Shown one piece after another: positions 21,472 to 48,872 of a stretch of 64,000 bases of DNA. Location: contig JBAYIY010000003.1 of NCBI GenBank assembly GCA_041665365.1, positions 4,260-68,259 of the forward strand, read 5' to 3'. Both the position numbers and the translations under genes were made by a program. Below the pieces are notes generated by a model that was given only the letters and a program-made list of their open reading frames with translations, was not told the origin of the DNA and ran no database searches. Source of the stretch: Patescibacteria group bacterium. Its GTDB lineage: Bacteria > Patescibacteriota > Patescibacteriia > UBA9570. Position 1 is the stretch's first letter. Each line of letters starts with the position of its first letter.

Positions 21472-21585
21472 TTCCGGAGTTTACCCACTCACTGGAATGT
21501 ACCCCCTAGCCCCCTTGCAGGGGGAACAAGATTTTTTCTCACACTTTTTCTTAGCCCCCTGCAAGGGGGTTGGGGGTAAATTCCG
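21472..21585. mobile_element. MITE-like ~100-bp hairpin-rich repeat, copy A (TIRs TTTACCC(C)C/GGGGGTAAA; internal GCCCCCTTGCAGGGGG and GCCCCCTGCAAGGGGG hairpins)
   Basis: About 90% identical to 48769-48872; fills the gap between two convergent stop codons. Confidence 0.6.
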
Positions 21586-21586
21586 T

Positions 21587-22477
21587 TTAAGAGATCAGTT
21601 CTTTCATTGTCTGTTCCCATCTCTTCTGCAATTCTGGTCTTGGATCATAAGTATGAAATTTCAGAATATCATCTGAGAGTACCACAACGCTCGATTCTAT
21701 CGGCCCACTAAGTTGTTTGAGTTGTTTAGGCATGAACCACAGTTGGAGTTTTTTTAATAATCTTTCCCATAACCACAGGCGATCTGGCAGGTGACTAGAA
21801 CCAACTGTGCGATTAGGGTACATTTGATAGGCTGGTGTATTAGGTAAAACTTGTTTGATCCAATCATATTGTAGATTTTTAAACAAATGTTGTGGGTCAT
21901 AAATGGGTAGGAGTTGCGCTAACCAATAGGCCTCTAATAAATCACCATCGTTGTTTCTCAACTGGTCTAGTTTGGTTAAACCAGTTGGTGTGACATAAAA
22001 ACTTAAACATATAGCATCTTTGGTATGATTTGGTTTAGGACGAACATTAAGTAGTTTGGCTAATAAAGTTGTATAAAATCTGGTTGACCAGATATGATCA
22101 GGAGCAGTGACAATCAGGATATCAACATCACTATTACATTGTACATTGTGATAGGCTAATGTGTTTACTAAAGCCATGGCTCTAACGCCGGGCAACATGG
22201 TTAACCAACCTAATAAGCGGCGGCGTTTATTCCATTTTCGTTCAGATTCTTGGTAACGTTGTTGTCGTATAACACTTAAATTTTCACGCCCCTGAAACAT
22301 AACAAAACCACCGTGTTCTATTAATTGTGGTAGTTGTTTGGCTACAGTCATCGTTTCACTTAATGAAGTTTGAGGTGACCGCCATAAATAGCGATAAATT
22401 TCTGGATAGGTGAGGGGAAAATCAAATGAATCAAAATACACTAGTGTTGCCAGAATCGATTGTTGTAGTGGTGTCAT
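21587..22477 (-). CDS. hypothetical protein, possible nucleotidyltransferase fold
   Basis: Weak: ..NSDVDILIV.. is a Dx(D/E)-like motif preceded by a putative wHTH; assignment is tentative. Confidence 0.3.
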   Translation of the reverse strand: MTPLQQSILATLVYFDSFDFPLTYPEIYRYLWRSPQTSLSETMTVAKQLPQLIEHGGFVMFQGRENLSVIRQQRYQESERKWNKRRRLLGWLTMLPGVRAMALVNTLAYHNVQCNSDVDILIVTAPDHIWSTRFYTTLLAKLLNVRPKPNHTKDAICLSFYVTPTGLTKLDQLRNNDGDLLEAYWLAQLLPIYDPQHLFKNLQYDWIKQVLPNTPAYQMYPNRTVGSSHLPDRLWLWERLLKKLQLWFMPKQLKQLSGPIESSVVVLSDDILKFHTYDPRPELQKRWEQTMKELIS

Positions 22478-25302
22478 AAGCGCCGTAAAAACTGCGCGGT
22501 GTAGGAGTTCTTTACCAGTTTCACTTGTTCTGGAGTACCTTCAGCAATAATTTCGCCACCACCATCACCACCCTCGGGGCCTAAATCTATCAACCAATCA
22601 GAACATTTTATAACATCTAAATTATGTTCGATAATCAATACACTGTTACCTTTATCAACTAACTTATGTAACACACTAAGTAATCTTTTGACATCGGCAA
22701 AGTGTAAACCAGTGGTTGGTTCATCTAGAATGTATAAAGTTTTACCAGTGGCGCGGCGTGATAATTCTGTGGCCAGCTTAATTCTTTGGGCTTCACCACC
22801 AGATAGGGTTGTAGCATTTTGTCCGAGTTGAATATAACCCAAACCGACATCTAATAAGGTATGTAATTTTTCATGAATCGCTGGAATATGAGTAAAAAAC
22901 TGGACAGCCTCTTCAACCGTCATTTCCAAAACATCAGCGATCGTTTTACCTTTATAGTGAATTTCTAAAGCCTGTAAATTGTATCTTTTACCCTGACATT
23001 CATCGCACTTTACATAAACATCTGGTAATAATTGCATAGCAATGCATTGGACACCATCACCTTCACACGCCTCGCACCGGCCACCCTTCACATTAAAAGA
23101 GAACCGGCCAGCTTTATAACCGCGCATTTTGGCCTCTGGTACTTGCGTGAATAAATCACGAATGGCAGTAAAGACCCCGGTGTAGGTGGCGGCATTAGAA
23201 CGTGGGGTTCGACCAATGGGGGATTGATCAATATGAATGACTTTATCGAGATGTTCCAAGCCGGTTATTTCACGATGTTTACCGGGATGATCTTTGGCAT
23301 TAAAAAAATGTTGCGCCAGTGCTTTGGCGAGAATATCGATCATGAGTGTAGATTTACCTGAACCAGATACGCCGGTGATACACACTAATTTTCCTAATGG
23401 AATAGACACATCAATATTTTTTAAATTAAATTCTTGCGCCCCAAAAATTTTAATGGCCTTACCGTTGCCTGAGCGATATTTTTTAGGTGGAGAGATTGTC
23501 TCTTTGCCAGATAAATACAAACCAGTCAGAGAATGTTTATTTTTCTTAATGACGGTCGGTGTACCTTCCGCGACAACTTCACCACCATGGCTACCGGCGC
23601 CTGGGCCAATATCAATCACATGATCAGCGGCTTCAATGGTGTCGGCATCATGTTCGACCACAATTACGGTGTTACCTAAATCACGCAAGGTTTTTAAAGT
23701 AGCAATCAAACGAGCGTTATCACGTTGGTGCAAACCAATTGACGGTTCATCTAGTATATAAATCACCCCCATGAGGGCTGAACCAATTTGGGTGGCTAAC
23801 CGAATGCGTTGGGCTTCACCGCCAGACAAGGTGGCAGCGGCGCGATCTAAAGTTAGGTAATCTAAACCGACATTATGTAAAAACTCTATCCGTTCTTTAA
23901 CTTCTTTCACAATGGGGGAAGCAATTTTTTGTTCGCGTTGCGTTAATTCATAACTGGAAAAAGTTGTACGCAATTGGCTAATACTTAAGGCACACAAACT
24001 AGCAATATCAGCAGCATGAATGGTAACTCCGAGTACGGCTGGTTTTAATCTTTTGCCAGAACAGGTTGGACACAGTGAGATGCGCATGTACCGTTCGATT
24101 TCACCGCGCATGTAATCAGATTCAGTTTCTTTGTAGCGGCGTTCTAAATTCGGAATGACACCTTCATAGGAGGTATAAAAACCTTTAACTTTACCAGGTG
24201 CATAAGGGGCATTGATATCATAACTATTATCTCCAGAACCAAATAACACGGTTTGCAGAGCAGCGGCTGATAAATCTTTCACTGGATCATGAATCGAAAA
24301 ACCTTGGGCTTGTGCCACGGTTTCTAAAATACGCATCATCCAGGTTTGATTAGCCGAGGTGCGTGACCACGGGCGAATGGCTCCTTCGGAAATAGATAAG
24401 CGTTTATTTGGAATAATCAAATCAGGATCCACTTCAAGTTTGGTGCCTAAACCGGTACATTCTGGGCAAGCGCCATGGGGGCTATTAAACGAAAAATTAC
24501 GCGGTTCCAGTTCTTCCATATTAAAACCACAGTTGGGGCAAGCGAACCGTTCGGAAAATATTTGATCACGTTCAACTGTGGTATCGTGAATAATCACTAA
24601 GCCGTTTCCTAAATCTAAGGCCGTTTCCAAAGATTCAGCGAGGCGTTCTTTATCCAAGTCTGCCGTGATGGTGAGGCGATCAATCACAATATCAATAGCG
24701 TGTTTTTTCTTTTTATCTAAAGTCATGTCTTCAGCTTCTTCAATCGGAAGCATCAGACCATCAATTCGTAAGCGGCTGTAACCAGATTTTTTGGCTGTGT
24801 CTATGACATTACGGTGTTCACCTTTTTTATCACGAATCACCGGAGCTACGATCATTACTTTGTGATCGATTGGTAAATGAGTGACCGCTTCAATAATTTG
24901 TTTAACCGTTTGTTTACAAACCACTGTGCCATCATTTGGGCAATGGGGGATACCGATACGGGCATAGAGTAAGCGCAGATAATCATAGATTTCAGTGACT
25001 GTGCCAACGGTGGAACGGGGATTGTGTGACGTAGTTTTTTGATCAATTGAGATGGCCGGTGACAAACCAGAAATTTGATCAACGTCTGGTTTATCCATTA
25101 AACCCAAAAACTGGCGCGCATAGGCTGATAAGCTTTCCACATAACGGCGTTGCCCCTCAGCGTAAATAGTATCAAACGCCAAAGATGATTTTCCTGAGCC
25201 GGATAATCCGGTAATCACCACCAATTGATTACGCGGAATATCAACAGAAATATTTTTTAAATTGTGTACCCGCGCTCCCCGGATAGAGATGAAATTATCC
25301 AT
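22474..25302 (-). CDS. uvrA: excinuclease ABC subunit A
   Basis: Two ABC ATPase modules (GLSGSGKSS, GVSGSGKST) and zinc-finger Cys clusters; start chosen at MDNFISIRGA. Confidence 0.95.
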   Translation of the reverse strand: MDNFISIRGARVHNLKNISVDIPRNQLVVITGLSGSGKSSLAFDTIYAEGQRRYVESLSAYARQFLGLMDKPDVDQISGLSPAISIDQKTTSHNPRSTVGTVTEIYDYLRLLYARIGIPHCPNDGTVVCKQTVKQIIEAVTHLPIDHKVMIVAPVIRDKKGEHRNVIDTAKKSGYSRLRIDGLMLPIEEAEDMTLDKKKKHAIDIVIDRLTITADLDKERLAESLETALDLGNGLVIIHDTTVERDQIFSERFACPNCGFNMEELEPRNFSFNSPHGACPECTGLGTKLEVDPDLIIPNKRLSISEGAIRPWSRTSANQTWMMRILETVAQAQGFSIHDPVKDLSAAALQTVLFGSGDNSYDINAPYAPGKVKGFYTSYEGVIPNLERRYKETESDYMRGEIERYMRISLCPTCSGKRLKPAVLGVTIHAADIASLCALSISQLRTTFSSYELTQREQKIASPIVKEVKERIEFLHNVGLDYLTLDRAAATLSGGEAQRIRLATQIGSALMGVIYILDEPSIGLHQRDNARLIATLKTLRDLGNTVIVVEHDADTIEAADHVIDIGPGAGSHGGEVVAEGTPTVIKKNKHSLTGLYLSGKETISPPKKYRSGNGKAIKIFGAQEFNLKNIDVSIPLGKLVCITGVSGSGKSTLMIDILAKALAQHFFNAKDHPGKHREITGLEHLDKVIHIDQSPIGRTPRSNAATYTGVFTAIRDLFTQVPEAKMRGYKAGRFSFNVKGGRCEACEGDGVQCIAMQLLPDVYVKCDECQGKRYNLQALEIHYKGKTIADVLEMTVEEAVQFFTHIPAIHEKLHTLLDVGLGYIQLGQNATTLSGGEAQRIKLATELSRRATGKTLYILDEPTTGLHFADVKRLLSVLHKLVDKGNSVLIIEHNLDVIKCSDWLIDLGPEGGDGGGEIIAEGTPEQVKLVKNSYTAQFLRRL

Positions 25303-25346
25303 ATGAATCGCGAGTAGTATACGCCCGTGATATACTATGGTCAAGC

Positions 25347-26528
25347 ATGCGCACTGTTATAGCTCAACAATTAAAGACTTTACCCAAACAACCGGGTGTA
25401 TATTTGTTCAAAAACCGGTTTGGTAATGTTCTGTATGTCGGCAAAGCCAAAGTTTTACAACAACGGGTGCGGTCATATTTTCGCGCACAGACCGACTTAT
25501 CTGATTTAAAGTTATTAATGATTCCACAGATTGATGTGATTGATACCATTCCGGTAGCGACAGAGACGGACGCGATTGTTTTAGAAGACCAACTGATTAA
25601 AGATTATCAGCCACGCTTTAATACTTTAGCCAAAGACGATAAAAGTTTTTTATATATTCATATTACCGCCGAAACTACTCCGCGTATCCTGGCCGTCCGG
25701 CGGCCAGATTTAGCGAGTGGAGGAATTTTTTACGGACCATATCCGTATGCAAAAAATATCCGATCGCTGTTACTTTTAATACATAAAATTTTCCCGGATA
25801 CTCAACAAATCGATCGGGTGATTGCCTTGTTAGAGGGTAAATTGTCTAACTTAATTCCAGACTTACAGACCGCCATGCAGCAGGCAGCGCGCCAAAAACA
25901 CTTTGAACGAGCCGCCCATTTACGCGATCAAATCCGAGCTGTGCAACAATTAAAAATGTTACGCAAAACACCGCGCCAATACTTGTTAGAAAGAATGCAA
26001 ACTACATCTTTGGATATAATGATCGGCCTGAAGGAATTATCACACGCCTTACATTTACCAGAATCTTTGCACCGCATTGAAGTGTATGACATCTCGCACC
26101 ACCAGGGGCGATATATGGTTGGTTCGATGATTGTGTTTATTGATGGCTTACCGGATAAAGCCGAGTATCGTCGATTTAAAATTAAAAGTGTGTTAACCGG
26201 TCAATCGGATGATTTTAAAAGTTTACGGGAAGTGGTGCAGCGCAGATTAAAACGTGATTGGTCATTACCGGATTTGGCGATTATGGACGGCGGTAAGGGG
26301 CAACTTAGTGCGGTGGCACCATTGTGGCAATTAGCCGGAGTGCCAGTAGCAGCTTTAGCCAAAAAACGGGAAGAATTATTTTTACCCGGTATACCTTTGC
26401 CGGTATTATTATCAGCCGGGAGTCAGGGTTTATTTTTAGTACAAAGAATGCGCGATGAAGCGCACCGGTTTGCGATTAGTTATTATCGTTTATTGCACAG
26501 CCGGGCTATGCGCCAGGCAGGGAAATAA
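25347..26528 (+). CDS. uvrC: UvrC-like excinuclease subunit, short form (GIY-YIG plus RNase H-like endonuclease domain; no C-terminal (HhH)2)
   Basis: GIY-YIG motif (GVYLFKNRFGNVLYVGKAKVLQQRVRSYF) and C-terminal UvrC endonuclease motifs; 393 aa; divergent from uvrA. Confidence 0.7.
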   Translation: MRTVIAQQLKTLPKQPGVYLFKNRFGNVLYVGKAKVLQQRVRSYFRAQTDLSDLKLLMIPQIDVIDTIPVATETDAIVLEDQLIKDYQPRFNTLAKDDKSFLYIHITAETTPRILAVRRPDLASGGIFYGPYPYAKNIRSLLLLIHKIFPDTQQIDRVIALLEGKLSNLIPDLQTAMQQAARQKHFERAAHLRDQIRAVQQLKMLRKTPRQYLLERMQTTSLDIMIGLKELSHALHLPESLHRIEVYDISHHQGRYMVGSMIVFIDGLPDKAEYRRFKIKSVLTGQSDDFKSLREVVQRRLKRDWSLPDLAIMDGGKGQLSAVAPLWQLAGVPVAALAKKREELFLPGIPLPVLLSAGSQGLFLVQRMRDEAHRFAISYYRLLHSRAMRQAGK

Positions 26529-27249
26529 TATCCTCAGCGGTCGCGCCGATCATGAGTAATTCAGCATCAGTGACAGTTAATTCTTCAGTACCAGATCGAA
26601 TAACTATACCATTACCAGTGTTAGACCGGAGGATAGTGGGTTGCTTATTTAATAAAGGTTGAACGGCGGGTAAAGCTGATAATTTTGTCATTAAACCAGA
26701 GGCTGGTTTTTGTAGAGGCAATTCATGAATTGCCTCTACAGGTTGTTGAGTGGGTTCAGGTTGTTCAAATGTGGCTAAAGCTGTTTTAGTGGCTTGAACT
26801 TTCTTTTGCAGATCAGTGAGTTGATCGGCATAGCGTTGGTTAATATGATCCATTTCATCCAACAGACCCTGGCGATCTAACCCACCGGCGGAATAATTAT
26901 CAAAAGCTTTTTTCTCATCGATTTTTTGTAATCTAACCACTTCTTTGAGTTGGGTATTTTGTTTTTGTAAAACCTCTTTTAACTGAGCGATCTGTGCGGT
27001 GTTATCTGGCACAGCGGCCGTTTGACGATCCAGTTCAAACAATTCACGTTCTAGTGCCTGTTGGCGGGTTTCACTACCTTGGATTTTAGAAATCCAATCT
27101 TTCATGTTACCCAAAAGAGTATTCTCTTCTTGTTGTAATTTTTCTAGTTCAGCTTGTACCGCACTCCGGCGATCCGGCGTAGCCGAAACTGGTGTCACAG
27201 GTGGAACTGGTTGTAACTTAACGTTGGGGGATAAAGTTATATCTGGCAT
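26506..27249 (-). CDS. hypothetical coiled-coil protein
   Basis: Heptad-rich central region; contains an in-frame palindrome copy encoding AIHELPL. Confidence 0.4.
   Translation of the reverse strand: MPDITLSPNVKLQPVPPVTPVSATPDRRSAVQAELEKLQQEENTLLGNMKDWISKIQGSETRQQALERELFELDRQTAAVPDNTAQIAQLKEVLQKQNTQLKEVVRLQKIDEKKAFDNYSAGGLDRQGLLDEMDHINQRYADQLTDLQKKVQATKTALATFEQPEPTQQPVEAIHELPLQKPASGLMTKLSALPAVQPLLNKQPTILRSNTGNGIVIRSGTEELTVTDAELLMIGATAEDIISLPGA
26711..26740. repeat. 30-bp perfect palindrome TGTAGAGGCAATTCA|TGAATTGCCTCTACA inside a CDS (IHELPL family, diverged copy)
   Basis: Read from the sequence; differs from the 54484 copy by symmetric compensatory changes. Confidence 0.55.
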
Positions 27250-27259
27250 AATGTTTAGC

Positions 27260-28042
27260 CTACTCTAAAGTGAAGTCCTTTAAAAGGTTACTAACTGTTT
27301 TATCAAAAATCACACTTGATCCAGTTGGGGCATACTGACCAAGAATTGTTACCACGTATTGTTCAGACTGAGCAGTTGTGACGGGGAAATAATGCACTAT
27401 GATGGGATTATGATTGGCGTCATAGGCATGTTGCGTAGCGCCGTTGCGCGCAGCGACAGCCGTAGGGGATGATACCGCAATGGTGCCGTCATAAGTGGGG
27501 GCGGCTTGTTCGAGCCAAGTGGAAAAATCGGCTAAGTCATTTTTTGTCACCGTGATAGTCATAGTAGTAGCATCGATGCCAGTGTGTGTGTAGCGCACGG
27601 AATTGGTGGCTTGATCGGTTAACGTCCAACTGATCGGTAAGGCCAGGGTCATTTCACCAGCCGATGTCAGAACTTGTCTTTTTTCTATTGTGTTCAGCAT
27701 AAATAAACCGCTGTTATCCTTGGCTAAGGCAGACATTTCTAGGAAAGTGGCTTGGGCATAGCCGGCCACAACAATTAACGCCAAGGCGCCAACAAACACA
27801 ATACTATATATATTAATCAGGTTATGTCGCATCGACCAGGTTTTAACTTTATGTTTATGATGGGTCTGGTGTTTGGGTGCTGACGCGGGTGGCTCGGCCG
27901 GCACATGCGGTGACACCTGATAGATGTCTAATGGGCTGACGGCCGACTTTTTTTTACGACTAACACGAGCCCGGGTTTTTTTGGCGGTGGGTGCAATTTT
28001 TTTCTTAGGTGTGGTTTTTTTCTTTGTAGTTTTTCTTTTCAT
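27260..28042 (-). CDS. hypothetical membrane protein with Lys-rich cytoplasmic N-terminus
   Basis: MKRKTTKKKTTPKKK.. basic tail, one TM helix and a C-terminal extracytoplasmic domain. Confidence 0.4.
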   Translation of the reverse strand: MKRKTTKKKTTPKKKIAPTAKKTRARVSRKKKSAVSPLDIYQVSPHVPAEPPASAPKHQTHHKHKVKTWSMRHNLINIYSIVFVGALALIVVAGYAQATFLEMSALAKDNSGLFMLNTIEKRQVLTSAGEMTLALPISWTLTDQATNSVRYTHTGIDATTMTITVTKNDLADFSTWLEQAAPTYDGTIAVSSPTAVAARNGATQHAYDANHNPIIVHYFPVTTAQSEQYVVTILGQYAPTGSSVIFDKTVSNLLKDFTLE

Positions 28043-28090
28043 AGAACAATATGAGAATTGTACAACGGATGTTTTTTTGAGGCAAGGGGG

Positions 28091-28192
28091 AGACCTCTCC
28101 TCCCCAACCCTCCTCTCCTTCGTTAGGAGAGGAGGGAGTAAGAAAGAAAACCCCCTCTCCTTCTGAAGGAGAGGGGCAGGGGGAGAGGTCTC
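28091..28192. repeat. composite nested-hairpin repeat R1 (outer IR GAGACCTCTCC/GGAGAGGTCTC enclosing two hairpins and the AGTAAGAAAGAAAA motif)
   Basis: Related to 53382-53510 (the hairpin CCCCTCTCCTTCTGAAGGAGAGGGG is identical); overlaps the uvrD stop codon. Confidence 0.55.
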
Positions 28193-30230: not shown

Positions 30231-30311
30231 AGACTGGATAGCATAGCATTACTTTAATTTCATTGACAAATTCACCCGATAGTATTAAATAATCTGACAT
30301 CTGGAGGGAAG

Positions 30312-30629
30312 ATGAAAGAAAAGAGGGGACGCGGTCGGCCTTCTATGGGCAATGAAGCCCGAAACGTCAACGCGGTGGCGAGAGTCACCGCAATGACGTT
30401 GGAAAAGGTTGACCAGGCCGCTGCAGCAGCCGGTGTGTCACGTTCCACCTGGATCGCCGACACCATCGAGCGGGCGTTGTACCCGCCCGTCGTCGGCGAA
30501 GATTGTACTGGGCTCCCGGGTGAGCCCGAGGACAATCACGTCGACCTTGGAGTCGACGTTTCAATTTGTGAGGGAGAGTGTATGGGAGAAGAAACTCCCA
30601 TTCGCTATCTTGATAATGATGAGGAATAG
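30312..30629 (+). CDS. ribbon-helix-helix (CopG/Arc-like) DNA-binding protein encoded in a GC-rich (~58%) foreign segment
   Basis: ..RGRPSMGNEARNVNAVARVTAMTLEKVDQAAAAAGVSRSTWIADTIERAL.. matches the RHH pattern; the frame was chosen on that basis because all six frames are open in this GC-rich stretch. Confidence 0.5.
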   Translation: MKEKRGRGRPSMGNEARNVNAVARVTAMTLEKVDQAAAAAGVSRSTWIADTIERALYPPVVGEDCTGLPGEPEDNHVDLGVDVSICEGECMGEETPIRYLDNDEE

Positions 30630-30677
30630 GCTTGGGTTGAGTACAAAACACTCCCCAAGCCTAAGTTACATAGTGTA

Positions 30678-30706
30678 TTGACACTGTCATGACAGTATGA
30701 TATGGT
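30678..30706 (+). promoter_or_regulatory. candidate promoter TTGACA-17-TATGGT with embedded 12-bp palindromic operator CTGTCATGACAG; positioned for a leaderless dinJ transcript
   Basis: Hexamers and palindrome read directly; start codon at 30713. Confidence 0.4.
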
Positions 30707-30712
30707 GGGTGT

Positions 30713-31257: not shown

Positions 31258-31268
31258 AAAATAAATAT

Positions 31269-31652: not shown

Positions 31653-31673
31653 ACTAGTATCACCTCACTGTTT

Positions 31674-31898: not shown

Positions 31899-31930
31899 AA
31901 TTCAATAGTTTTTTTATCAAATAATTTTGT

Positions 31931-36813: not shown

Positions 36814-36850
36814 AACCGTAATTCTATCCTAATGAAACCTACGATGCAAC

Positions 36851-36879: not shown

Positions 36880-36901
36880 ACACCTTAATAATCCTTCAAT
36901 C

Positions 36902-40666: not shown

Positions 40667-41208
40667 AACGGTTGTTATTATTACTCTGTGCATTATCATT
40701 TTACCCGGCTAGTTTAGCGGCTGCGACCGCTGGCAGTGTGCATGTCGTGGCTCACGCCAACGATGCGGCTGCGCTTGAGATAGTCGATCGCACAACCATC
40801 GTGAAACAAATCGATTATCTTGGTTTAGATTCAACCAGTCAACCCGTCACAACAGAAATTGAGTTTAGTGGGACAGCGGCGACACCACAAGCTACAGTTA
40901 AGGTTTCTATTCCGGCGGCTGACATTGCGCAATTAACCGAAGTAGACAGCGCTGGTAAATGGAGTATAGCTTTACCAACTCAAGCACTGACACCAGGGAA
41001 TTATTATGCTTATGTATCAGCCGCAGATATAACTGAGACCAATAAAACTCTAGGTTTACCCGTAGCCTATTTCACCGTGTTGAATAATCAATCATTGTCG
41101 GTGGCAACCTGGATATTTTTAGTCACCAGTGGATTAGCCATTTTTGCTTTATTATTGGCGATTACTTTACAATTGCGTTATAATGCTGAACATCATCCCG
41201 TTTTATGA
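40663..41208 (+). CDS. secreted protein with C-terminal TM anchor (resembles the C-terminal module of the upstream giant protein)
   Basis: Signal peptide MKRLLLLLCALSFYPASLAAA; C-terminal TM helix. Confidence 0.4.
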   Translation: MKRLLLLLCALSFYPASLAAATAGSVHVVAHANDAAALEIVDRTTIVKQIDYLGLDSTSQPVTTEIEFSGTAATPQATVKVSIPAADIAQLTEVDSAGKWSIALPTQALTPGNYYAYVSAADITETNKTLGLPVAYFTVLNNQSLSVATWIFLVTSGLAIFALLLAITLQLRYNAEHHPVL

Positions 41209-42185
41209 CAATTTTTTCCGGTATTCAACCGTCTGGCTCAATTCATTTAGGAAATTATATCGGCGCTATTCGACAATGGGTTGAACTTCAAACCAGTGCG
41301 CAGCCGTGTCTTTATTGCATTGTGGATTATCATGCTATCACTGTCCGACAAGATCCTGACACACTCAATGAAAATATTCGGTCACTGGCCGCCATGTATC
41401 TGGCCGTCGGTTTAGATCCAACAAAAGTTATCTTATTTAAACAATCAGATGTATCAGCGCATACTGAACTAGCCTGGATCTTGAACACGCTAACCTATAT
41501 GGGTGAACTGGAGCGCATGACGCAATACAAAGATAAAATCAAACAACACAAAAAAAACAATAATGTTGGTTTATTTACTTATCCAGTCTTGATGGCAGCC
41601 GATATATTATTATATCAAACTGAGGCTGTGCCCGTCGGGGAAGATCAATCGCAACACGTTGAATTAACTCGTGATATCGCGCAACGCTTTAATGAACGTT
41701 ATGGTGATACATTTATCGTACCGAAAGTGTTGCAACCTACTGTCGGAACACGGATTATGAGTCTAGATGATCCAACTAAAAAGATGAGTAAATCCGCCAC
41801 TAGCCCGTTAGGTTATATCAGTTTAACTGATACGCCAGAGGTGATTACAAAAAAAATAAAAAAGGCCGTCACTGATTCCGGTACGGACATTATTGCCAGC
41901 GATGATAAACCGGCTCTTAAAAACCTCTTAACTATCTATTCAGTATTGTCCGGTAAAACTATCACTCAACTCGAAACACTTTACGCCAAGCAAGGTTATG
42001 GTAAATTCAAAACTGATTTAGCCGAAGTAATAGTGAATTGGGTAAAACCAATTCAAGCACGTTATCAAACTTTAATGGTAGATCAAGTTAGTTTAGATCA
42101 AATCTTACAGCACGGCGCTGACCAAGCGAAAATTTTGGCAGATAAAACATTGCGCGATGTCAAAAGTAAAATCGGCCTCAACTAA
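41205..42185 (+). CDS. trpS: tryptophan--tRNA ligase
   Basis: Class I HIGH-like (PSGSIHLGNY) and KMSKS motifs; 326 aa. Confidence 0.9.
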   Translation: MTIFSGIQPSGSIHLGNYIGAIRQWVELQTSAQPCLYCIVDYHAITVRQDPDTLNENIRSLAAMYLAVGLDPTKVILFKQSDVSAHTELAWILNTLTYMGELERMTQYKDKIKQHKKNNNVGLFTYPVLMAADILLYQTEAVPVGEDQSQHVELTRDIAQRFNERYGDTFIVPKVLQPTVGTRIMSLDDPTKKMSKSATSPLGYISLTDTPEVITKKIKKAVTDSGTDIIASDDKPALKNLLTIYSVLSGKTITQLETLYAKQGYGKFKTDLAEVIVNWVKPIQARYQTLMVDQVSLDQILQHGADQAKILADKTLRDVKSKIGLN

Positions 42186-43464
42186 AATCCCGACCATCCT
42201 AATTTTTGGGTTAGGCGGTTATGTGCATGGCAGTGGTACTGCCGCGGCTCTGTATTTTGCTAAACAGGGCTATCATGTGATTGTGACCGATCAAAAATCT
42301 GCCGATCTATTACATCAAGGCACAATAAAAAAATTAAATAAATACCCCAATGTTGAGTTAGTGTTGGGAAAACATCGTAAAACCGATATTAGACGAGCTG
42401 ATTTGATAGTTCGTAATCCGGGTGTGTCGGATCAATCACCCTTTATGCAGTATGCCCACCAATTAAAAAAACCGATTACAAATGATGTGGGTATTTTCTT
42501 GGATGAATTAAAAGAGCAGTTCGGGCCAGATGGTGTGACGGTGGTTGGTATCACCGGAACGCGCGGTAAAAGTACCACTACGGCTTTAATTGGCCACATG
42601 CTACAAGCACGGGTGGGCGGAAACATTGGTTTGTCACCCTTAACTTTTCTCAATAAAATCAAAGCTAATGATGTAGTAGTGTTAGAGCTATCTAGTTGGT
42701 TATTACGTGATTTACATCTACCTAGTTTGTCTGTCGCAGTAGTAACAAACATGTTGCGCGATCACATGAATTATTACAAAAACATGTCATTGTATCAGGC
42801 CGATAAAGAACGCATCTTTTTAGGCCAAGCACCCTACCATCATGCTGTAGTAAATGCGACTGATAGTAGAGTTCGTCAGATGGCAAAAAAAACTAAAGCG
42901 CAATTACATTGGTTTAATAAAACCAGTATTAAGGGAGTACAATTATTAGGTGAACATAATCAATTTAATATTGGGGCGGCTTGGCAAGTAGGGAAAGTAT
43001 TTGGTTTAACCGATAAACAATTAGTTGCAGCTGTTAAATCATTTAAACCATTAGCGAATCGTTTAGAAGTAATTCGCGTACATAACGGTCGGACATTTAT
43101 CAACGATACTACAGCCACAACTCCAGATGCGACTATTGCAGCACTGTTATCATTTAAGAAAAAAGTGATTTTAATTGCTGGTGGCAACTCTAAACAGTTA
43201 TCATTAACAGCCCTGCGTAAATTAATCCCTCAACATGTAAAAAAACTGATTTTATTACCCGGTAATGCCAATCATGATTTTCCTCCTGGTATTACTGTGT
43301 CTACCATGGCGCAAGCCGTGCGTACTGCCTGGCAGTTATCCAAACCCGGCGATATTATTTTATTATCGCCGGGTGTGACCTGGTTACCCTTAATGAATGA
43401 ATTTAAACGCGGTGAAGAGTTTGTTAAGGAGGTAAAAAAACACCTCCCCAACCCTCCTATATAG
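42157..43464 (+). CDS. murD: UDP-N-acetylmuramoylalanine--D-glutamate ligase
   Basis: Mur ligase P-loop (GITGTRGKSTTTALIGHML) and N-terminal Rossmann-like region; start uncertain (overlaps trpS). Confidence 0.8.
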   Translation: MSKVKSASTKIPTILIFGLGGYVHGSGTAAALYFAKQGYHVIVTDQKSADLLHQGTIKKLNKYPNVELVLGKHRKTDIRRADLIVRNPGVSDQSPFMQYAHQLKKPITNDVGIFLDELKEQFGPDGVTVVGITGTRGKSTTTALIGHMLQARVGGNIGLSPLTFLNKIKANDVVVLELSSWLLRDLHLPSLSVAVVTNMLRDHMNYYKNMSLYQADKERIFLGQAPYHHAVVNATDSRVRQMAKKTKAQLHWFNKTSIKGVQLLGEHNQFNIGAAWQVGKVFGLTDKQLVAAVKSFKPLANRLEVIRVHNGRTFINDTTATTPDATIAALLSFKKKVILIAGGNSKQLSLTALRKLIPQHVKKLILLPGNANHDFPPGITVSTMAQAVRTAWQLSKPGDIILLSPGVTWLPLMNEFKRGEEFVKEVKKHLPNPPI

Positions 43465-43512
43465 GAGGGAGTAAGAAAAAATCTTAACCCCTTCCTAAAT
43501 AGGAAGGTGTAT
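43441..43512 (+). repeat. nested-hairpin repeat family member (CACCTCCCCAACCCTCCTATATAGGAGGGAGTAAGAAAAAA plus a second hairpin CCTTCCTAAATAGGAAGG)
   Basis: Shares leader, hairpin and AGTAAGAAA tail with the other copies; its 5' part encodes the last 8 residues and the stop codon of murD. Confidence 0.5.
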
Positions 43513-43519
43513 TCCGGCA

Positions 43520-44248
43520 TTATAAATGCGCGTAGCGTTTGATTTGTTCAAGAAAGGGCATCTTTTCTCCACTACATTCAAAGATGTAACTAGGAGGAGT
43601 ATTGTGTAATTTTGGTTCGGCCTGTTGCATAACTCGTAGAGTTTGACGTGCCACGGCTTCATTTGAATCGATCACTTTAACATCTGGTCCAACCAGGCGT
43701 TGAATTCGTCCCTTTATTAGGGTGTAATGGGTACAGCCTAAGACAACAATGTCAGCCTCGCCAATTGGTTTGAGATAGTGTTTTAGTTGTTCTTCGGTTA
43801 AACGGTGAAATTCAATGGCGGTGGCTAAACCAATGCAGGGAATTTTTTTCACGTTTTTATCGGGCGCAAATTCAGCAATCAATTGGTCAGTATAAGGTGA
43901 TTCAGTTGTGACCACCGTAGCCAATAAAGCAATCTGACCATTTTTAGTTAGAGCCGCGGCTGTTTTAATAACTGGCACAACTCCAATAATAGATTTTGGT
44001 ACATGCGCACGAAAAAAATCTAAATCGTTCACTGAAGCAGTATTGCAGGCCAGCACAATAACATCACAAGTTTTGGCTAATTTTTTTAAACCGTTTAAGG
44101 TAATGTGCCGAATTTCATCTGGAGTGCGTTCACCAAATGGAAAAAAAGCTGTATCGGCATAATAGGTGATACTTTCGGTTGGTAGAACTTGTTTGATAGT
44201 ATTGAAGATGCCGAGACCGCCAATACCTGAATCATAGACGCCGATCAT
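43520..44248 (-). CDS. murI: glutamate racemase
   Basis: MIGVYDSGIGGL.. and ..LACNTAS.. motifs. Confidence 0.9.
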   Translation of the reverse strand: MIGVYDSGIGGLGIFNTIKQVLPTESITYYADTAFFPFGERTPDEIRHITLNGLKKLAKTCDVIVLACNTASVNDLDFFRAHVPKSIIGVVPVIKTAAALTKNGQIALLATVVTTESPYTDQLIAEFAPDKNVKKIPCIGLATAIEFHRLTEEQLKHYLKPIGEADIVVLGCTHYTLIKGRIQRLVGPDVKVIDSNEAVARQTLRVMQQAEPKLHNTPPSYIFECSGEKMPFLEQIKRYAHL

Positions 44249-44268
44249 AGTTGGATCAGTTTAACATG

Positions 44269-45783
44269 TTAATGAATAATCAGACTAGTGCCAGTCATGT
44301 CAACTGGTTTTGGTTCACCCAGGATATCTAAAATAGTGGCCGCGCAATCTTTTAAAGTGCCATCATCGCGCAATTTAGCTTGTTTATGTTGGTCATCAAT
44401 TAAAATAAATGGGACAAATGAATCCGTGTGAAAGGTATGTGGGCAGTTATAGGTGGGATCCCACATGACTTCGGCATCACCATGATCGGCGGTTATTATC
44501 ATCACACCATCATGGACTTTTAATTCTTGATAGATGATATGTAAAGCGCGATCAATCGCTTCCACCCCTAAAATGGTGGCGGGTTTGTTACCGGTATGGC
44601 CGAGCATATCGGCATTGGGAAAATTCATCACATACACATCAAAAGCATCACTTTTTAAGTGTTTCACAGCCTCAGCGGCAATGGCCTCAGCTTGCATTGC
44701 TGGCTTTAAATCATAGGTGGCAATTTTATCTGATGGAATCAGGACACGTTCTTCACCTGGAAATGGATCTTCGCGCATGACATTAAATATTTTGGTCACA
44801 TAAACCCATTTTTCTGTCTCAGTGAGACGGAGTTGTGAATAACCACGTTTACTCAATACTTCACCTAGAATATTTTTCGCGGCCAGTTCAACACGCGCCA
44901 ATGCGGCTGGGGCGGGCATATCAGTATAATATTCACTCATGCCCACATAATGTAACTTTGGTACAGTGCGCCGAGTAAAATGTTTAAACCCTGGTTCTAT
45001 TAAAGCTTGTGTAATTTCAATTTCCCGATCGATGCGAAAATTAAAATTTATCACCACATCACCATCACGCATTATGCCATCGGGATTAATAATTGTCGGT
45101 TGAATAAATTCATCAGTTTCACCGCGCGCATAAGCCGTTGTAATAGCAGCATCGGCGGAGTTTGCCTGGTGTAAACCTTCGCCTAGAACTAATAATTTAT
45201 AAGCCGCTTCAATCCGTTCCCAACGATGATCGCGATCCATCACCCACCAGCGGCCTTGTAGTGTCGCCACATCATTACCCAATTTGGCCACATATTGACG
45301 CGCGGAAGTTGGCGGCACATCACGTCCGTCTGTAATGGCATGAATAAACACATCCTTCACTCCACCAGCTTTGGCCATGGCGACTAATTCATGACAGGCT
45401 GTGTCGTAAGTATGTACACCACCATCGGAGATTAAACCCATAAGGTGTAAACGGCCAGTTCCGGTAACCGCTTGTTGGATGGCTTTTAATAGAACGGGAT
45501 TCTTGCGAATATCTCCTGTCGCAATGGCCTGCAGTAATTGCATTTGAGGCAACAATAAGTTGCGTCCGGCTCCCATAATTAAATGACCCATCTCGGTTGA
45601 ACCAGGGTGACCTTGTGGTAGACCAATGTGTGGACCAGCCGCACCAATCGGTTTGTTGGGATAGTTCGCTAGAAAAGAGTCGATCGTGGGAGTTTTCGCT
45701 AAAAAAATCGCATTATGAGCATCATCGGTACCAATACCCCAGCCATCGAGAATAATAAACATCACCGGACGTTTACTTTTCAT
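44269..45783 (-). CDS. gpmI: 2,3-bisphosphoglycerate-independent phosphoglycerate mutase
   Basis: ..FIILDGWGIG.. N-terminus and full-length iPGM similarity; 504 aa. Confidence 0.9.
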   Translation of the reverse strand: MKSKRPVMFIILDGWGIGTDDAHNAIFLAKTPTIDSFLANYPNKPIGAAGPHIGLPQGHPGSTEMGHLIMGAGRNLLLPQMQLLQAIATGDIRKNPVLLKAIQQAVTGTGRLHLMGLISDGGVHTYDTACHELVAMAKAGGVKDVFIHAITDGRDVPPTSARQYVAKLGNDVATLQGRWWVMDRDHRWERIEAAYKLLVLGEGLHQANSADAAITTAYARGETDEFIQPTIINPDGIMRDGDVVINFNFRIDREIEITQALIEPGFKHFTRRTVPKLHYVGMSEYYTDMPAPAALARVELAAKNILGEVLSKRGYSQLRLTETEKWVYVTKIFNVMREDPFPGEERVLIPSDKIATYDLKPAMQAEAIAAEAVKHLKSDAFDVYVMNFPNADMLGHTGNKPATILGVEAIDRALHIIYQELKVHDGVMIITADHGDAEVMWDPTYNCPHTFHTDSFVPFILIDDQHKQAKLRDDGTLKDCAATILDILGEPKPVDMTGTSLIIH

Positions 45784-47144
45784 GCGCGAATCAAGGTTAA
45801 CAATTCTTTAGTTTTTTCATCCAGTAATTGCGCGGATCTAGCCTCAAGATTTAAGCGTAATAATGGTTCGGTATTAGACGCTCGTACATTAAACCAGTAA
45901 TCTTCATACTCAATGGTGATACCATCTAACTCTGAGATTTTTTTCGCCTGTGGTCCATAAGTATTTTTAATGTTTGCCATGACCTGTAATGGGTGGGTGA
46001 CAGTTGAGTTTATTTCTCCGGAATGGAAATATTTGCGTAATGGCCGCACTTGGTCAGCGATCGTAGCTGATTCACGACTGAATAACTGTAAGAGTTTTAA
46101 TACTACAATACATGGTGCTTCAAATGTGCCGTGGGGTAATTTTACAAAGAAATGGCCAGATGACTCACCGGCAAAAACGGCGCCTTCTCTTAGGGCTTGT
46201 TCTTTAATCAATGAGTGGCCAACTTTGGTAACCGATGGTTTACCACCATATTGTTCGATCATATCCTGGGTGATGCGACCGGGTCTAATATCGTAACAAA
46301 TCGTACTGCCAGGAAATTGTTCCAGAAAAACTTTGGCTAATAATCCACGCACCATGGCTGGTTCAATTAATTTACCCTCATTGTCGATGAAAAAAATCCG
46401 ATCACCATCACCATCCGTGGCAATACCCAGGTCGGCTTTTTCTTCCACAACTCGTTTCATTAAGGCGAGATTATTTTCCTCTTTGAACGGATCAGCTTCA
46501 TGGGCTGGAAAGGTACCATCCAAATTAAAATTCATCATGATAAGTTCACACGGGAGATGCTTGAATAATTCTGTGAGATAAGTTGCCCCCATGGCATTAG
46601 CCGCATCGGCCACAATCTTAAATGGTTTTATATTATTAGTACCAGCAAACTGAATGGCCTCAGCCACATCATTTATGACAATATCAGCACGGGTTTCGAC
46701 GTGACCAGTATTTTTTTTATTATTATAATCAACGTTTTTCGAAACGGCATCACGTAATGTCATAATGCCGGTATCTTTACTGACCGGGACACCACCGGCC
46801 CGCACCATTTTTAGACCATTGTATTGTGGGGGATTGTGTGAGGCCGATACCATCAAACCACCATCATAACCATACTTTGCAACAGCAAAATAGAAAGCCG
46901 GCGTTGAGACTAACCCAACATCAACTACTATTTGGCCTTCATCTAACAAACCCTGAATGACCGCCTGCTTCAAACTAGGTGATGATAGACGCATGTCCGC
47001 GCCGACGACTAATTTTAATTGACGATTATTTTGTTCAGCCGAAATTAATTGAGATAAAGACCGGGCAGTTTTATAGGCGATATCCTCGGTTAATTCCGAA
47101 CCATAAACGCCACGAATATCGTAGGCTTTAAAGATTTCTCCCAT
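45780..47144 (-). CDS. phosphohexomutase (phosphoglucosamine mutase / phosphomannomutase family)
   Basis: Active-site motif VSASHNP, a metal-binding loop and ~450 aa length. Confidence 0.8.
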   Translation of the reverse strand: MGEIFKAYDIRGVYGSELTEDIAYKTARSLSQLISAEQNNRQLKLVVGADMRLSSPSLKQAVIQGLLDEGQIVVDVGLVSTPAFYFAVAKYGYDGGLMVSASHNPPQYNGLKMVRAGGVPVSKDTGIMTLRDAVSKNVDYNNKKNTGHVETRADIVINDVAEAIQFAGTNNIKPFKIVADAANAMGATYLTELFKHLPCELIMMNFNLDGTFPAHEADPFKEENNLALMKRVVEEKADLGIATDGDGDRIFFIDNEGKLIEPAMVRGLLAKVFLEQFPGSTICYDIRPGRITQDMIEQYGGKPSVTKVGHSLIKEQALREGAVFAGESSGHFFVKLPHGTFEAPCIVVLKLLQLFSRESATIADQVRPLRKYFHSGEINSTVTHPLQVMANIKNTYGPQAKKISELDGITIEYEDYWFNVRASNTEPLLRLNLEARSAQLLDEKTKELLTLIRA

Positions 47145-48237
47145 ATTGTTGTATCAAGCTACCCATGGCCCAAGCCATTGCCACTACCATCACGACACAA
47201 CTTAATAACCAACCAAAGAAACCAAACCAACTCATCACGCCAGTTACTAGATATAACATACTAAAACCTAACATAAACTGTCCGAAAGAAGATTTGGCTT
47301 GTGGTAACAGCAGATAACCTAGACCAGAACCAGCTAATACTTTTGCCCACATCAGTACAACCAATAAAACTAAACCACTCATGGTGGCTAATGGTAAGCC
47401 AACTAAGGTTATAGCTAAGGTAAGTAAAACAGCCGGTGCTAGAACTAATATGCCAATACCATATAGTAGACTTTTGCCCGGCGCTGTTTTCATGCGCTGT
47501 ATAACGGTGTTGCTATTTTTCGGGAATAATTTAAGAAGCACAATTCCTAATATTACATAACCCAACCAACCAAGCATGAGTTTAATAACCTGAAAGACGG
47601 TGACCAAGGGTTTTTTTACATCTGGTTTTGGTGCGGTTTGGTTATTATTTTGTTCTTCAGGTTTAGTGTGATGCACTTCACCTAATATGCTGGCCGTGTT
47701 GCCTGTGTTTAATTCATTGGCTGTGACAGTGACATCACCGTTCACAGTGCCGTTAACATCCAGGGTGTTAGATTGCACAGTAACGTCTTGTCCAACATGG
47801 GCAGTTTTAGCAATGGTAACTTGATTACCAAATACAACTAAATTTCGTCCGACTGACTGTTTTATGGTAACAGTGCTACCAGCGGCTCTAAGACTTCCAT
47901 TAACATCGCCATCAACTATCACTGTTCCACCAGCTACAAATAAATCTCCTTCAATTGTGCCAGTTACCGTCACGGTATTACCAGCGACGAAAACATCATT
48001 CAAATAATGTTTATCCAAAACCACATCTTGGTTAGCATACAAGTACATGTGTTCAACCGTGTCTAAGTTTTCTTCTTTCACTGCACCAGTTGTGTTTTTA
48101 ACTTGTTCATTAATTGGGTCAGTTTCAGCTGCCAACATAGCATCGGCTGGAGTGAGCGTAAATAAAACAATGCCTCCTAATACAAGTGCAATAAAAGCAC
48201 TGATTAATGGGATAGATTGGGTCACTTTAAATTTCAT
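47128..48237 (-). CDS. membrane protein with beta-helix-like V/G/T-rich repeats (DUF4097/bactofilin-like) and a C-terminal multi-TM domain
   Basis: ..FVAGNTVTVTGTIEGDLFVAGGTVIVDGDVNGSLRAAGSTVTI.. repeats followed by about 5 TM helices. Confidence 0.35.
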   Translation of the reverse strand: MKFKVTQSIPLISAFIALVLGGIVLFTLTPADAMLAAETDPINEQVKNTTGAVKEENLDTVEHMYLYANQDVVLDKHYLNDVFVAGNTVTVTGTIEGDLFVAGGTVIVDGDVNGSLRAAGSTVTIKQSVGRNLVVFGNQVTIAKTAHVGQDVTVQSNTLDVNGTVNGDVTVTANELNTGNTASILGEVHHTKPEEQNNNQTAPKPDVKKPLVTVFQVIKLMLGWLGYVILGIVLLKLFPKNSNTVIQRMKTAPGKSLLYGIGILVLAPAVLLTLAITLVGLPLATMSGLVLLVVLMWAKVLAGSGLGYLLLPQAKSSFGQFMLGFSMLYLVTGVMSWFGFFGWLLSCVVMVVAMAWAMGSLIQQYGRNL

Positions 48238-48278
48238 ACTAGTGTTAGTTTATATGAATCAAGTGGGCGTACTATACA

Positions 48279-48350
48279 CCAGTGAGGGGGTATTGGCAAC
48301 CTGGAATTTATCTCTTTAGTCTTACCCCCAACCCCCTTGCAGGGGGCTTA
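48279..48350. repeat. partial/rearranged copy C of the MITE-like element (one arm CTTACCCCCAACCCCCTTGCAGGGGGCTTAG plus an inverted left-end fragment CCAGTGAGGGGGTA)
   Basis: Matches the reverse complement of the right arm of copies A and B. Confidence 0.45.
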
Positions 48351-48386
48351 GATTAATGATAAAGTTCTTTTAAGAAGCGCCGCCTT

Positions 48387-48800
48387 GTGAGGGGGCGTTT
48401 TATGTACTTAAAAGAACCTACTCAAAATCAGATTAAATTACAACATAAACTACAATTGTTAGCACGTAAGTTACGAAATAATCCTACTCAAGCTGAAGTG
48501 GTGTTATGGAACAGATTAAAAGAAAAACAACTTGGTTGTAAGTTCAGACAGCAATATCCACTCTTTCAATTCATTGTAGATTTTTATTGTTCATCTCATC
48601 GATTAATCATTGAGGTCGATGGTTTAATCCATGAACAACAACGTGATTATGATCAGTTACGTGATCAGATAATGATGCGACATGGTTACTCAGTGATGAG
48701 ATTCGCGAATGCTGAAATCATGAATGATCTAGATAAGGTAATCGACAAGATTAAGGAGAAACTAAATGGATTTACCCCCTCACTGGAATTTACCCCCTAG
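48387..48800 (+). CDS. DUF559 domain protein (Vsr-like PD-(D/E)xK endonuclease fold)
   Basis: ..LARKLRNNPTQAEVVLWNRLKEKQLGCKFRQQYPLFQFIVDFYCSSHRLIIEVDG..HEQQRDYD..RD..GY.VMRF matches the DUF559 signature; the last 10 codons and the stop lie inside the MITE-like element. Confidence 0.75.
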   Translation: MRGRFMYLKEPTQNQIKLQHKLQLLARKLRNNPTQAEVVLWNRLKEKQLGCKFRQQYPLFQFIVDFYCSSHRLIIEVDGLIHEQQRDYDQLRDQIMMRHGYSVMRFANAEIMNDLDKVIDKIKEKLNGFTPSLEFTP

Positions 48801-48872
48801 CCCCCTTGCAGGGGGAATAAGATATTTAAACCACTTTTTCTTAGCCCCCTGCAAGGGGGTTGGGGGTAAAGT
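48769..48872. mobile_element. MITE-like ~100-bp hairpin-rich repeat, copy B
   Basis: About 90% identical to copy A; supplies the 3' end of the DUF559 ORF and lies between convergent stop codons. Confidence 0.6.

Follow-up and report, generated by a model that had tools for sequence, protein, structure and literature searches.

DUF559 nuclease genes are recurrently bracketed by palindromic repeat arms: inserted elements in a Patescibacteria genome and their relation to other bacterial repeats

The sequence described here (the window) is a stretch of 64,000 nucleotides from the metagenome-assembled genome (MAG) of a Patescibacteria group bacterium, a member of the candidate phyla radiation (CPR) that is close to Kerfeldbacteria and has a G+C content of 41% (GenBank GCA_041665365.1, contig JBAYIY010000003.1, positions 4,260 to 68,259). 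It contains at least two sequence families of non-coding, non-autonomous elements, which have a common architecture and common linkers, and a gene for a DUF559 nuclease, which together with its leader hairpin forms an inserted cassette of about 570 nt between inverted arms of the first family. The repeats are true insertions relative to syntenic relatives, located in compact 3′ gene ends, and the pairing of DUF559 genes with flanking repeats is recurrent and crosses phyla, rather than being a local curiosity. An initial annotation of the window, made from the sequence alone, had described repeat copies around the nuclease gene. The finding is more general than was seen there, and the recurrent bracketing of DUF559 is the new part. 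The features are collected in Table 1.

Table 1. Repeat elements and components of the DUF559 cassette in the window.
Feature	Position	Strand	Evidence or remarks
Family-1 doublet, copy A	21475-21585		blastn, repeat alignment, fold, empty sites in relatives
Family-1 doublet, copy B	48768-48872		repeat alignment, fold
DUF559 (Vsr-fold PD-(D/E)XK) nuclease gene	48402-48800	+	132 aa; 137 aa if the start is GTG 48387
Cassette left arm	48301-48352		31-nt inverted match; left boundary set by alignment with the promoter region of relatives
Leader hairpin and T-run (CGCCTTGTGAGGGGGCG TTTT ATG), directly 5′ of the DUF559 start	48381-48401	+	nucleotide conservation in L086 and L006
Family-2 doublet, copy 1	28091-28191		repeat alignment, module scan, fold
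Family-2 doublet, copy 2, inverted relative to copy 1	53383-53509		repeat alignment, module scan, fold
Small family-2-like element, between convergent murD and racemase gene	43440-43512		module scan, fold
Half element CCTTCC-CAA-CCTTCC-TATTGTA-GGAAGG with shared linker AGTAAGAAAGAAAA	18897-18938		3′ of GIY-YIG gene 18979-19257

The two complete family-1 elements in the window, copies A and B, are about 105-111 bp long. Their identity had been put at about 90%, and is 91% over about 105 nt by blastn, which is far above chance. The 15-nt hairpin core CCCCCTGCAAGGGGG is found five times in the window compared to 0.01 expected, and the left-end motif TTACCCCCTCACTGGAAT, allowing up to three mismatches, occurs three times compared to 0.03 expected. 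Terminal inverted repeats (TIRs) are present as described, except that they reach slightly further than the reported length, the ends being CGGA(G/A)TTTACCC...GGGTAAATTCCG; in copy A they occupy 21475-21486 and 21574-21585. The plan of family 1 is an outer TIR (C)GGA(A/G)TTTACCCCC, a module of the form C5-N2/3-C5-TTGCA-G5, an A/T-rich loop of about 30 nt, the inverted module and the inverted TIR. In copy A, the TIR CGGAGTTTACCC and a duplicated end (21480-21498) are followed by the left pyrimidine-pyrimidine-purine (Y-Y-R) module (21502-21524), the loop, the right module (21555-21576) and the TIR GGGTAAATTCCG. Copy B consists of L1 (48770-48789), the L2 module (48793-48815), the loop, and the R module (48845-48866) followed by TAAA. 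There are two types of arm, the L-type with a TAG linker and the R-type with an AA linker. As a single strand, family 1 is predicted to form a long hairpin using ViennaRNA, which considers Watson-Crick folds only; the predicted energy for copy A is -33 kcal/mol (z = -6.9).

Both copies are fitted closely to gene ends. As noted in the initial annotation, copy A lies between convergent stop codons; it makes up the entire spacer between the stops of the open reading frames (ORFs) 19565-21466 (+) and 21587-22477 (-). The suggestion that copy B is the source of the C-terminal end of the DUF559 protein is likewise supported by reading the ORF, whose last 10 or so codons and TAG stop (48798-48800) come from the element. 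The methyltransferase gene 48877-49533 (-) is convergent, and its stop codon lies 4 nt beyond the end of copy B.

Evidence for insertion comes from relatives in which the sites are empty. Copy A is flanked by convergent genes for a 296-aa protein and a 633-aa sigma-like protein, which have 56-63% protein identity to their counterparts in L153-L157. In these relatives (L153/L154, L155, L156, and L157) the two genes overlap by 13 nt and there is no spacer, whereas in the window a gap of 120 nt, formed by the element, separates them. One of the two flanking genes has gained four new C-terminal residues, its total length being unchanged. At the site of the DUF559 cassette, the gene order Elp3-methyltransferase-DUF8173-PGM is kept in L149, L150, L151, and L152, where the spacer is 20-95 nt long and contains neither DUF559 nor a hairpin. 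The insert in the window is therefore about 570 nt long, extending approximately from 48301 to 48872. The initial annotation had considered that the two copies might be the only ones, and might be found in related genomes as conserved terminators; instead, the relatives lack the sequence, and a further full family-1 copy is found in L086, a contig of 42% G+C, at an unrelated site between divergent genes upstream of mfd.

The DUF559 protein matches Pfam PF04480 with E = 5.7e-35 (119.9 bits, compared to a cut-off of 20.6), confirming the Vsr-like nuclease proposed earlier, and it also matches the Neisseria DUF559 structure PDB 3HRL (E = 3e-16) and the NCBIfam YcjD model (1.7e-19). The invariant residues D60, E71, D73, and H77 are present, so that the D...E-x-D...H core is kept. 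DUF559 groups with Vsr (PMC1189080), and has been placed with Vsr and the homing endonuclease I-Bth0305I (PDB 3R3P) in the EDxHD group (PMC3424549). In Caulobacter, the DUF559 protein VsrA gives rise to DNA damage and an SOS response once the cytosine methyltransferase ScmA is removed (PMC12907096). Because of the structural match, the conserved catalytic residues, the clade to which it belongs and the DNA damage seen in Caulobacter, the nuclease in the window is plausibly active.

The left arm of the cassette begins with a broken outer TIR, GGAATTTA (48303-48310), followed by an R-type module, TTACCCCCAACCCCCTTGCAGGGGGCTTAGA (48322-48352). These 31 nt are 97% complementary to 48839-48869 in copy B and to 21549-21579 in copy A, and the DUF559 gene is thus located between inverted element arms, as was originally suggested. 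The arm had been described as part of a rearranged partial copy. This is solid for 48322-48352, but the fragment to its left, 48276-48293, matches at only 15 of 18 positions and falls in the spacer of a promoter-like sequence whose -35 and -10 blocks are conserved in relatives, which makes its membership of the element doubtful. The leader hairpin is conserved in L086 and L006, which provide different genomic contexts, and it therefore travels with the gene as part of the cassette. In L086 the DUF559 gene is decaying, with an internal deletion and a frameshift; its arms are inverted but of other sequence, CCCCCTCCTTTCAGGAGTGGGG / CCCCACTCCTGAAAGGAGGGGGG, with a mirror block AACCTCCCC in front. 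The closest DUF559 homologue, from a Xenococcaceae cyanobacterium (58% identity), lies between direct copies of a hairpin-rich element of about 160 nt, and in L077 a DUF559 gene is enclosed in tandem arrays of the C5-TTGCA-G5 module.

No transposase, integrase or REP-associated tyrosine transposase (RAYT, where REP is repetitive extragenic palindromic) is encoded in the 64-kb window, based on all ORFs of at least about 90 aa, which were checked using Pfam or the precomputed annotation of identical contigs. The absence of a transposase had been noted previously. The ORFs comprise housekeeping genes, two toxin-antitoxin pairs, one GIY-YIG gene and the one DUF559 gene. Two other interpretations of the DUF559 loci were considered and set aside. 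For DUF559 as part of a defence system there are only marginal PADLOC matches. For integron attC sites (L005 and L077 resemble cassette arrays) there is no integrase, and the one match to GTTRRRY, located where copy B ends, is no more than expected by chance.

The initial annotation had the two family-1 copies right but missed four related elements, namely two family-2 doublets, a small family-2-like element and a half element (Table 1). Copy 1 of family 2 has the TIR AGACCTCTCC...GGAGAGGTCT and the mirror-repeat modules CCTCTCCTCCCC-AA-CCCTCCTCTCC-loop-GGAGAGGAGGG, and adjoins the stop codon of a UvrD-like helicase gene. The termini of copy 2, TAGACC.../...GGTCTA, form the stops of both convergent genes, 52329-53384 (+) and 53508-54611 (-), and the small element provides the last codons and the stop of murD. 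An example of a family-2 module is CCTCTCCCC-TAA-CCCCTCTCC-TTCTGAA-GGAGAGGGG. Family 2 has the same plan as family 1 with other stems, and the linker motif (A/G)TAAGAA...TTCTTA is common to both. The murD/racemase junction (window 43464-43520) is a local hot spot, which holds different extra genes in each of the relatives L149, L150, and L152: a 152-aa ORF, a hydrolase, and a nucleotidyltransferase toxin-antitoxin pair.

The copies of both families are inverted doublets of a G/C-rich Y-Y-R mirror-repeat module, which in family 1 is C5-N2/3-C5-loop-G5. A dedicated scan for pyrimidine-pyrimidine-purine blocks, with the first two blocks being mirror images, found 10-12 such modules in the window and none in 20 shuffles. 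They occupy at least seven sites, in two to three sequence families, again compared to none in shuffles. The asymmetric family-2 stems fit a mirror model with 0-1 mismatch and a direct-repeat model with 2-3 mismatches. As single strands, all the elements fold better than shuffles (z = -5.1 to -7.1), with family 2 predicted to form a three-way junction. The description of these sequences as structured, dispersed repeats is supported by this folding and by the number of sites. At most sites the elements lie at or over stop codons, with the TAG or TAA coming from the element termini, and the density of insertions in the window is about one per 9 kb. An Rfam search at the elements found no RNA family, and a terminator scan found no U/T-tract after the hairpins in the elements, its sole hit being the DUF559 leader hairpin.

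Outside the window, an exact 22-mer scan of 185k GTDB genomes (a collection that does not include this MAG) gave only two unrelated single hairpins. A metagenome scan gave 104 loci, among which the full family-1 element is found only in L086; most of the others are isolated hairpins with unrelated surroundings, or belong to tandem arrays of another lineage. Short-read assemblies break within the elements, and metagenome contig L003 breaks inside copy B. The tandem arrays are formed by the 22-nt module CCCCCTGCAAGGGGGTTGGGGG, with periods of 48 and 75 nt, and are located upstream of genes in L009, L020, L072, L075, L077, L080, L087, L096, and L105, on contigs of 40-48% G+C from another lineage and mostly from sample Ga0078972. 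A CRISPR was considered for the 75-nt arrays in L009 and L020 and discarded, since the 'spacers' are themselves repeated. The hairpin and G-run motif is also seen in apparent coding sequence (PPNPLQGG), by CT-rich simple repeats, in L010, L013, L014, L019, and L023 among others. These contigs have higher G+C and look phage- or plasmid-like, and the short motif probably has an unrelated use in them.

The association between DUF559 genes and repeats was analysed in two samples of loci. In the first, consisting of 37 IMG/VR loci together with the DUF559 loci described above, flanking repeats scoring 15 or more were present at 16 of 38 loci, compared to a maximum score of 14 in 210 controls at random positions. 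In the second, which used different seed peptides and was de-duplicated to one locus per cluster, flanking repeats were present at 12 of 17 loci and in 4 of 107 controls. A control based on genes gave the same result: repeat arms are found at 24 of 46 DUF559 genes (52%), compared to 7 of the 219 other ORFs that these loci contain (3%), corresponding to an odds ratio of 33 (p = 1.4e-15). Small ORFs account for 4 positives out of 120, and the seven positive control ORFs are mostly the gene adjoining DUF559, or spurious ORFs within arrays. Up to 200 nt from DUF559, modules resembling triplex motifs have a density of 2.5 per kb, compared to 0.31 per kb elsewhere, an 8-fold difference.

The arms usually begin no more than about 90 nt from the start codon on one side, and at or over the stop codon on the other. 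Their sequence is lineage-specific while their design is constant, an example being CCTCCCCC-loop-GGGGGAGG-(hairpin)-GGAGGGGG; in alphaproteobacterial contigs, arms of the CCTCCCCC type are perfect TIRs of 45-58 nt. Further copies of the arms are dispersed elsewhere within the same short DUF559 loci. The positive loci include contigs from CPR, cyanobacteria, proteobacteria and other groups, as well as E. coli K-12. When DUF559 proteins were grouped by arm sequence, the result was suggestive only for a TMECO-like group consisting of YcjD, L114, and L059. Full-text literature searches gave no paper that links DUF559 to such repeats, and none on miniature inverted-repeat transposable element (MITE)-like elements in CPR.

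The E. coli locus connects DUF559 with a described class of repeat. The BoxC/TMECO/PIT repeats, where PIT stands for potential intrastrand triplex, have been known since the 1990s. The TMECO pattern is CCCTCNCCC-N3-6-GGGNGAGGG-N3-GGGNGAGGG, and MG1655 contains 23 intergenic copies, including five inverted pairs of type A and type B, for which triplex formation has been shown in vitro and which have high local variability (Holder et al., 2015; PMC4666352). That survey found no mobility functions nearby and reported no link to a nuclease, although its table places TMECO #9 between fabI and ycjD (PMC4666352). E. coli ycjD is a DUF559 gene, and TMECO #9 lies 167 nt downstream of it. The stop codon of ycjD runs into a degenerate motif, followed by a second DUF559 3′-end remnant and then TMECO. 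This remnant, located in the fabI-ycjD spacer of E. coli K-12 (L148, 3200-3410), is a duplicate of about 70 nt of the ycjD 3′ end and looks like the trace of another DUF559 gene that was lost. The closest relatives of YcjD among those sampled, L114 and L059, bear TMECO-like arms. Of 5426 complete E. coli genomes, about 38% lack the ycjD-TMECO segment next to fabI, and in these a resistance-nodulation-division (RND) efflux island abuts fabI.

The elements in the window resemble BoxC/TMECO repeats in several ways. Both have a three-block design of C-stem, loop, G-stem, 2-3-nt loop and mirror G-stem, known here from the sequence, with the triplex being a prediction. Both occur as strictly intergenic dispersed copies at variable loci with no transposase nearby, and both form inverted pairs of two arm types, A and B in TMECO and L-type (TAG) and R-type (AA) here. 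The stems of family 2 are similar in length to those of TMECO (9-11 nt), whereas those of family 1 (5-6 nt) are borderline for or below the ITxF threshold, which requires stems of at least 6-8 nt. There is no match to the CCCTCNCCC...GGGNGAGGG pattern, the stems being C5/G5 in family 1 and CCTCTCC(CC)/GGAGAGG(GG) in family 2, and the elements therefore have the same architecture but belong to a different sequence family. They also differ in having outer TIRs and an A/T-rich central loop, and in their Patescibacteria host, the BoxC/TMECO repeats otherwise coming from E. coli, other Enterobacteria and Cyanobacteria (PMC4666352).

A second comparison is with REPs, their doublets (REPINs) and RAYTs. 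RAYTs are Y1 transposases similar to those of IS200/IS605, and are flanked by inverted REPs. Here too there are short palindromic extragenic modules in inverted doublets that form long hairpins, one small enzyme gene between inverted genome repeats, and dispersed doublets lacking a gene. The differences are that the flanked enzyme is a Vsr-fold PD-(D/E)XK nuclease and not HUH/Y1, that there is no RAYT in the window, that the modules are mirror homopurine/homopyrimidine blocks and not GTAG-headed REP palindromes, and that only a handful of copies have been found. The initial annotation proposed a MITE or a REP-like bacterial interspersed mosaic element (BIME). The elements are indeed short, non-coding, multicopy insertions bearing TIRs, and they resemble bacterial MITEs (Correia/NEMIS, ERIC/IRU, Nezha) in their size of about 100 bp, strong fold-back, insertion polymorphism and ability to supply gene ends. 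However, no convincing target-site duplication was seen, and the sole gene with the same ends here is a nuclease and not a known transposase. We know of no autonomous insertion sequence with family-1 ends, and strict use of the term MITE is therefore unproven; BoxC/TMECO repeats and REPIN-like doublets are better comparators.

The third comparison is with homing endonucleases such as I-Bth0305I, which is in the same clade. The DUF559 gene is likewise small and selfish-looking, shows presence or absence at a syntenic site, has decaying copies, and lies between two halves of a palindrome, in the way that a homing gene lies inside its target. It differs in not being in an intron or intein, and its presumed target is a multicopy non-coding repeat rather than a conserved gene. 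In addition, the DUF559 gene in the window is beside a complete doublet and not within its loop; where the gene is absent, in L149-L152, the empty site has no doublet either.

We consider that there is a little less than an even chance that DUF559 Vsr-fold nucleases and the palindromic modules constitute a functional pair of enzyme and target, similar either to RAYT and REPIN or to a free-standing homing endonuclease. The nuclease would recognise the structured arm, whether as hairpin, cruciform or triplex, and nick or cut it, and repair synthesis or recombination after cleavage would copy the arms. There are two possible routes. The nuclease could act in trans, allowing gene-less doublets to spread in the way that RAYT does for REPINs, or the nuclease gene could home into an existing doublet, as would a free-standing homing endonuclease with a palindromic target. 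The gene-less doublets would then be deletion derivatives or unoccupied targets. Besides the repeats, insertions and associations described above, the behaviour of the cassette as a unit, with a leader hairpin conserved in the window, L086, and L006, speaks for this pairing.

A number of observations weigh against a functional pair. The evidence from this genome consists of one DUF559 gene and 2.5 family-1 copies, and family 2 has no adjoining nuclease gene in the window. There is no convincing target-site duplication, the flanks of copy A being alike at only 8 of 15 positions by comparison with the empty sites. About half of the DUF559 loci have no flanking repeats. The arms are also not exclusive to DUF559, since in L190 (an alphaproteobacterial-type contig of about 72% G+C) the 45-nt arms also bracket a gene for a 98-aa protein that is not a nuclease (1215-1590), beside a phage-portal gene. 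Many of the positives are related alphaproteobacterial contigs with a single syntenic position, where the gene looks vertically inherited and not mobile, so that the effective sample is smaller, at roughly a dozen independent lineages as estimated from the loci, and the loci come mostly from IMG/VR, which is a biased collection. The arms have no consistent orientation with respect to the strand of DUF559; Y-Y-R is upstream in the window and in L086, and is opposite in the alphaproteobacterial group. The results from Caulobacter point rather to a function of DUF559 in repair (PMC12907096). A separate consideration is that, to our knowledge, a PD-(D/E)XK nuclease of 130 aa cannot carry out strand transfer alone.

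Alternatively, the modules may be spread by unlinked or other machinery and create spots that are prone to recombination or permissive for insertion, where DUF559 and other small genes that move horizontally, such as those for GIY-YIG and toxin-antitoxin pairs, gather without the nuclease acting on the repeats. TMECO loci are rearrangement hot spots in E. coli (PMC4666352), which fits with the frequent absence of the ycjD-TMECO segment described above. Repeats likewise enclose the GIY-YIG gene and a HigB/HTH pair in the window, the L190 arms flank a gene that is not a nuclease, and the element-bearing murD/racemase junction varies among relatives. Against this, the enrichment is strongly specific to DUF559 when compared to other ORFs, including small ones (52% and 3%), the arms usually have the placement at the two gene ends described above, and leader, ORF, and arms recur together in unrelated contexts. 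We think gathering of this kind unlikely, although it is an explanation to be taken seriously.

The arms might instead serve the gene, by insulating or terminating it, pairing the ends of its mRNA or restraining a toxic nuclease, with the gene-less doublets being scars left by loss of the ORF. Removal of the ORF from an arm-ORF-arm unit, for example that in L135, would leave a perfect palindromic doublet, and both the decaying DUF559 gene between arms in L086 and the remnant 3′ end in E. coli would be expected from such losses. The terminator-like leader hairpin, which sequesters a G-run before the ATG, also fits with this view. However, copy A lies between genes that overlap in all four relatives, which would require a cassette insertion followed by a clean deletion; there are no DUF559 remnants near the other six sites (tblastn, E ≤ 1e-4), and on inspection the doublet loops have no obvious homology to the interiors of cassettes. 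This makes the origin of the doublets as scars, and the arms as servants of the gene, quite improbable.

It is very improbable that DUF559 is a housekeeping T:G mismatch nickase of the Vsr type, paired with a cytosine methyltransferase encoded elsewhere, to which the repeats are irrelevant. The grouping of DUF559 with Vsr (PMC1189080, PMC3424549) and the functional tie between VsrA and ScmA in Caulobacter (PMC12907096) are in its favour, but the gene is absent at the syntenic site in four relatives and decaying in L086, which is unlike a housekeeping gene. Furthermore, there is no C5-cytosine methyltransferase in the window, and repair would leave the flanking repeats in different phyla unexplained. 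Finally, the idea that the elements are conserved bidirectional terminators, repetitive only in appearance, can be rejected as having a negligible probability: most copies do lie between convergent genes and have stable G/C hairpins, but there are no T-tracts after the hairpins in the elements, neither a spacer nor a hairpin is present at the corresponding positions in relatives, the L086 copy is between divergent genes, and an identity of 91% over 105 nt including the loops is not expected from convergence.

The functional pair can be extended to a wider proposal, which we put forward tentatively and regard as clearly less likely than not to hold: that DUF559 proteins are the missing cognate enzymes of BoxC/TMECO-type repeats throughout Bacteria, as a Vsr-fold system independent of RAYT, in which nicking of the folded arm would lead both to the spread of gene-less doublets and to local instability, even in minimal Patescibacteria. 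The origin and mobility of the BoxC/TMECO/PIT repeats and the cause of their instability are explicitly unexplained, and DUF559 (PF04480) is mostly without an assigned function among the members we met. The association between the two turns both questions into a single hypothesis, namely that YcjD or the protein in the window cuts its flanking arms. E. coli ycjD with its TMECO is an immediately tractable system for this. If DUF559 were the cognate enzyme of triplex-motif repeats, there would be a RAYT-independent system of nuclease and repeat throughout Bacteria. The window also shows that a Patescibacteria genome, of a kind usually called streamlined, can have its gene ends remodelled by frequent insertions.

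The window contains other repeats. A third family consists of perfect palindromes of 30-42 nt, CGTAGGGGTAATTCATGAATTACCCCTACG, at 10465-10494, 26711-26740, and 54484-54525. Two of the three copies are in-frame inside ORFs, 26506-27249 (-) and 53508-54611 (-), where they encode VEAIHELPLQ and VGVIHELPLR, and are like Rickettsia palindromic elements (RPEs) in being insertions into coding sequence. The elements described above resemble RPEs in being small palindromes that are tolerated in compact genomes, even in or at coding sequence, but are unrelated in sequence and architecture, and we know of no nuclease associated with RPEs. The HigB(Gp49)/helix-turn-helix (HTH) toxin-antitoxin pair (10603-11199) is framed by 67-nt direct repeats (10532-10598 and 11206-11272), which are 94% identical and include a terminator-like hairpin. 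The GIY-YIG nuclease gene adjoins tRNA-Met, where it has been inserted by comparison with L153, L155, and L156. Direct repeats of 18 nt, CCTTCGAYAARCTCAGGA (18967-18984 and 19376-19393), frame the gene, and near it there is a 12-nt duplicate of the tRNA 3′ end (18954-18965 compared to 19429-19440). The region from 31 to 33.6 kb of the window encodes a solute-binding protein.

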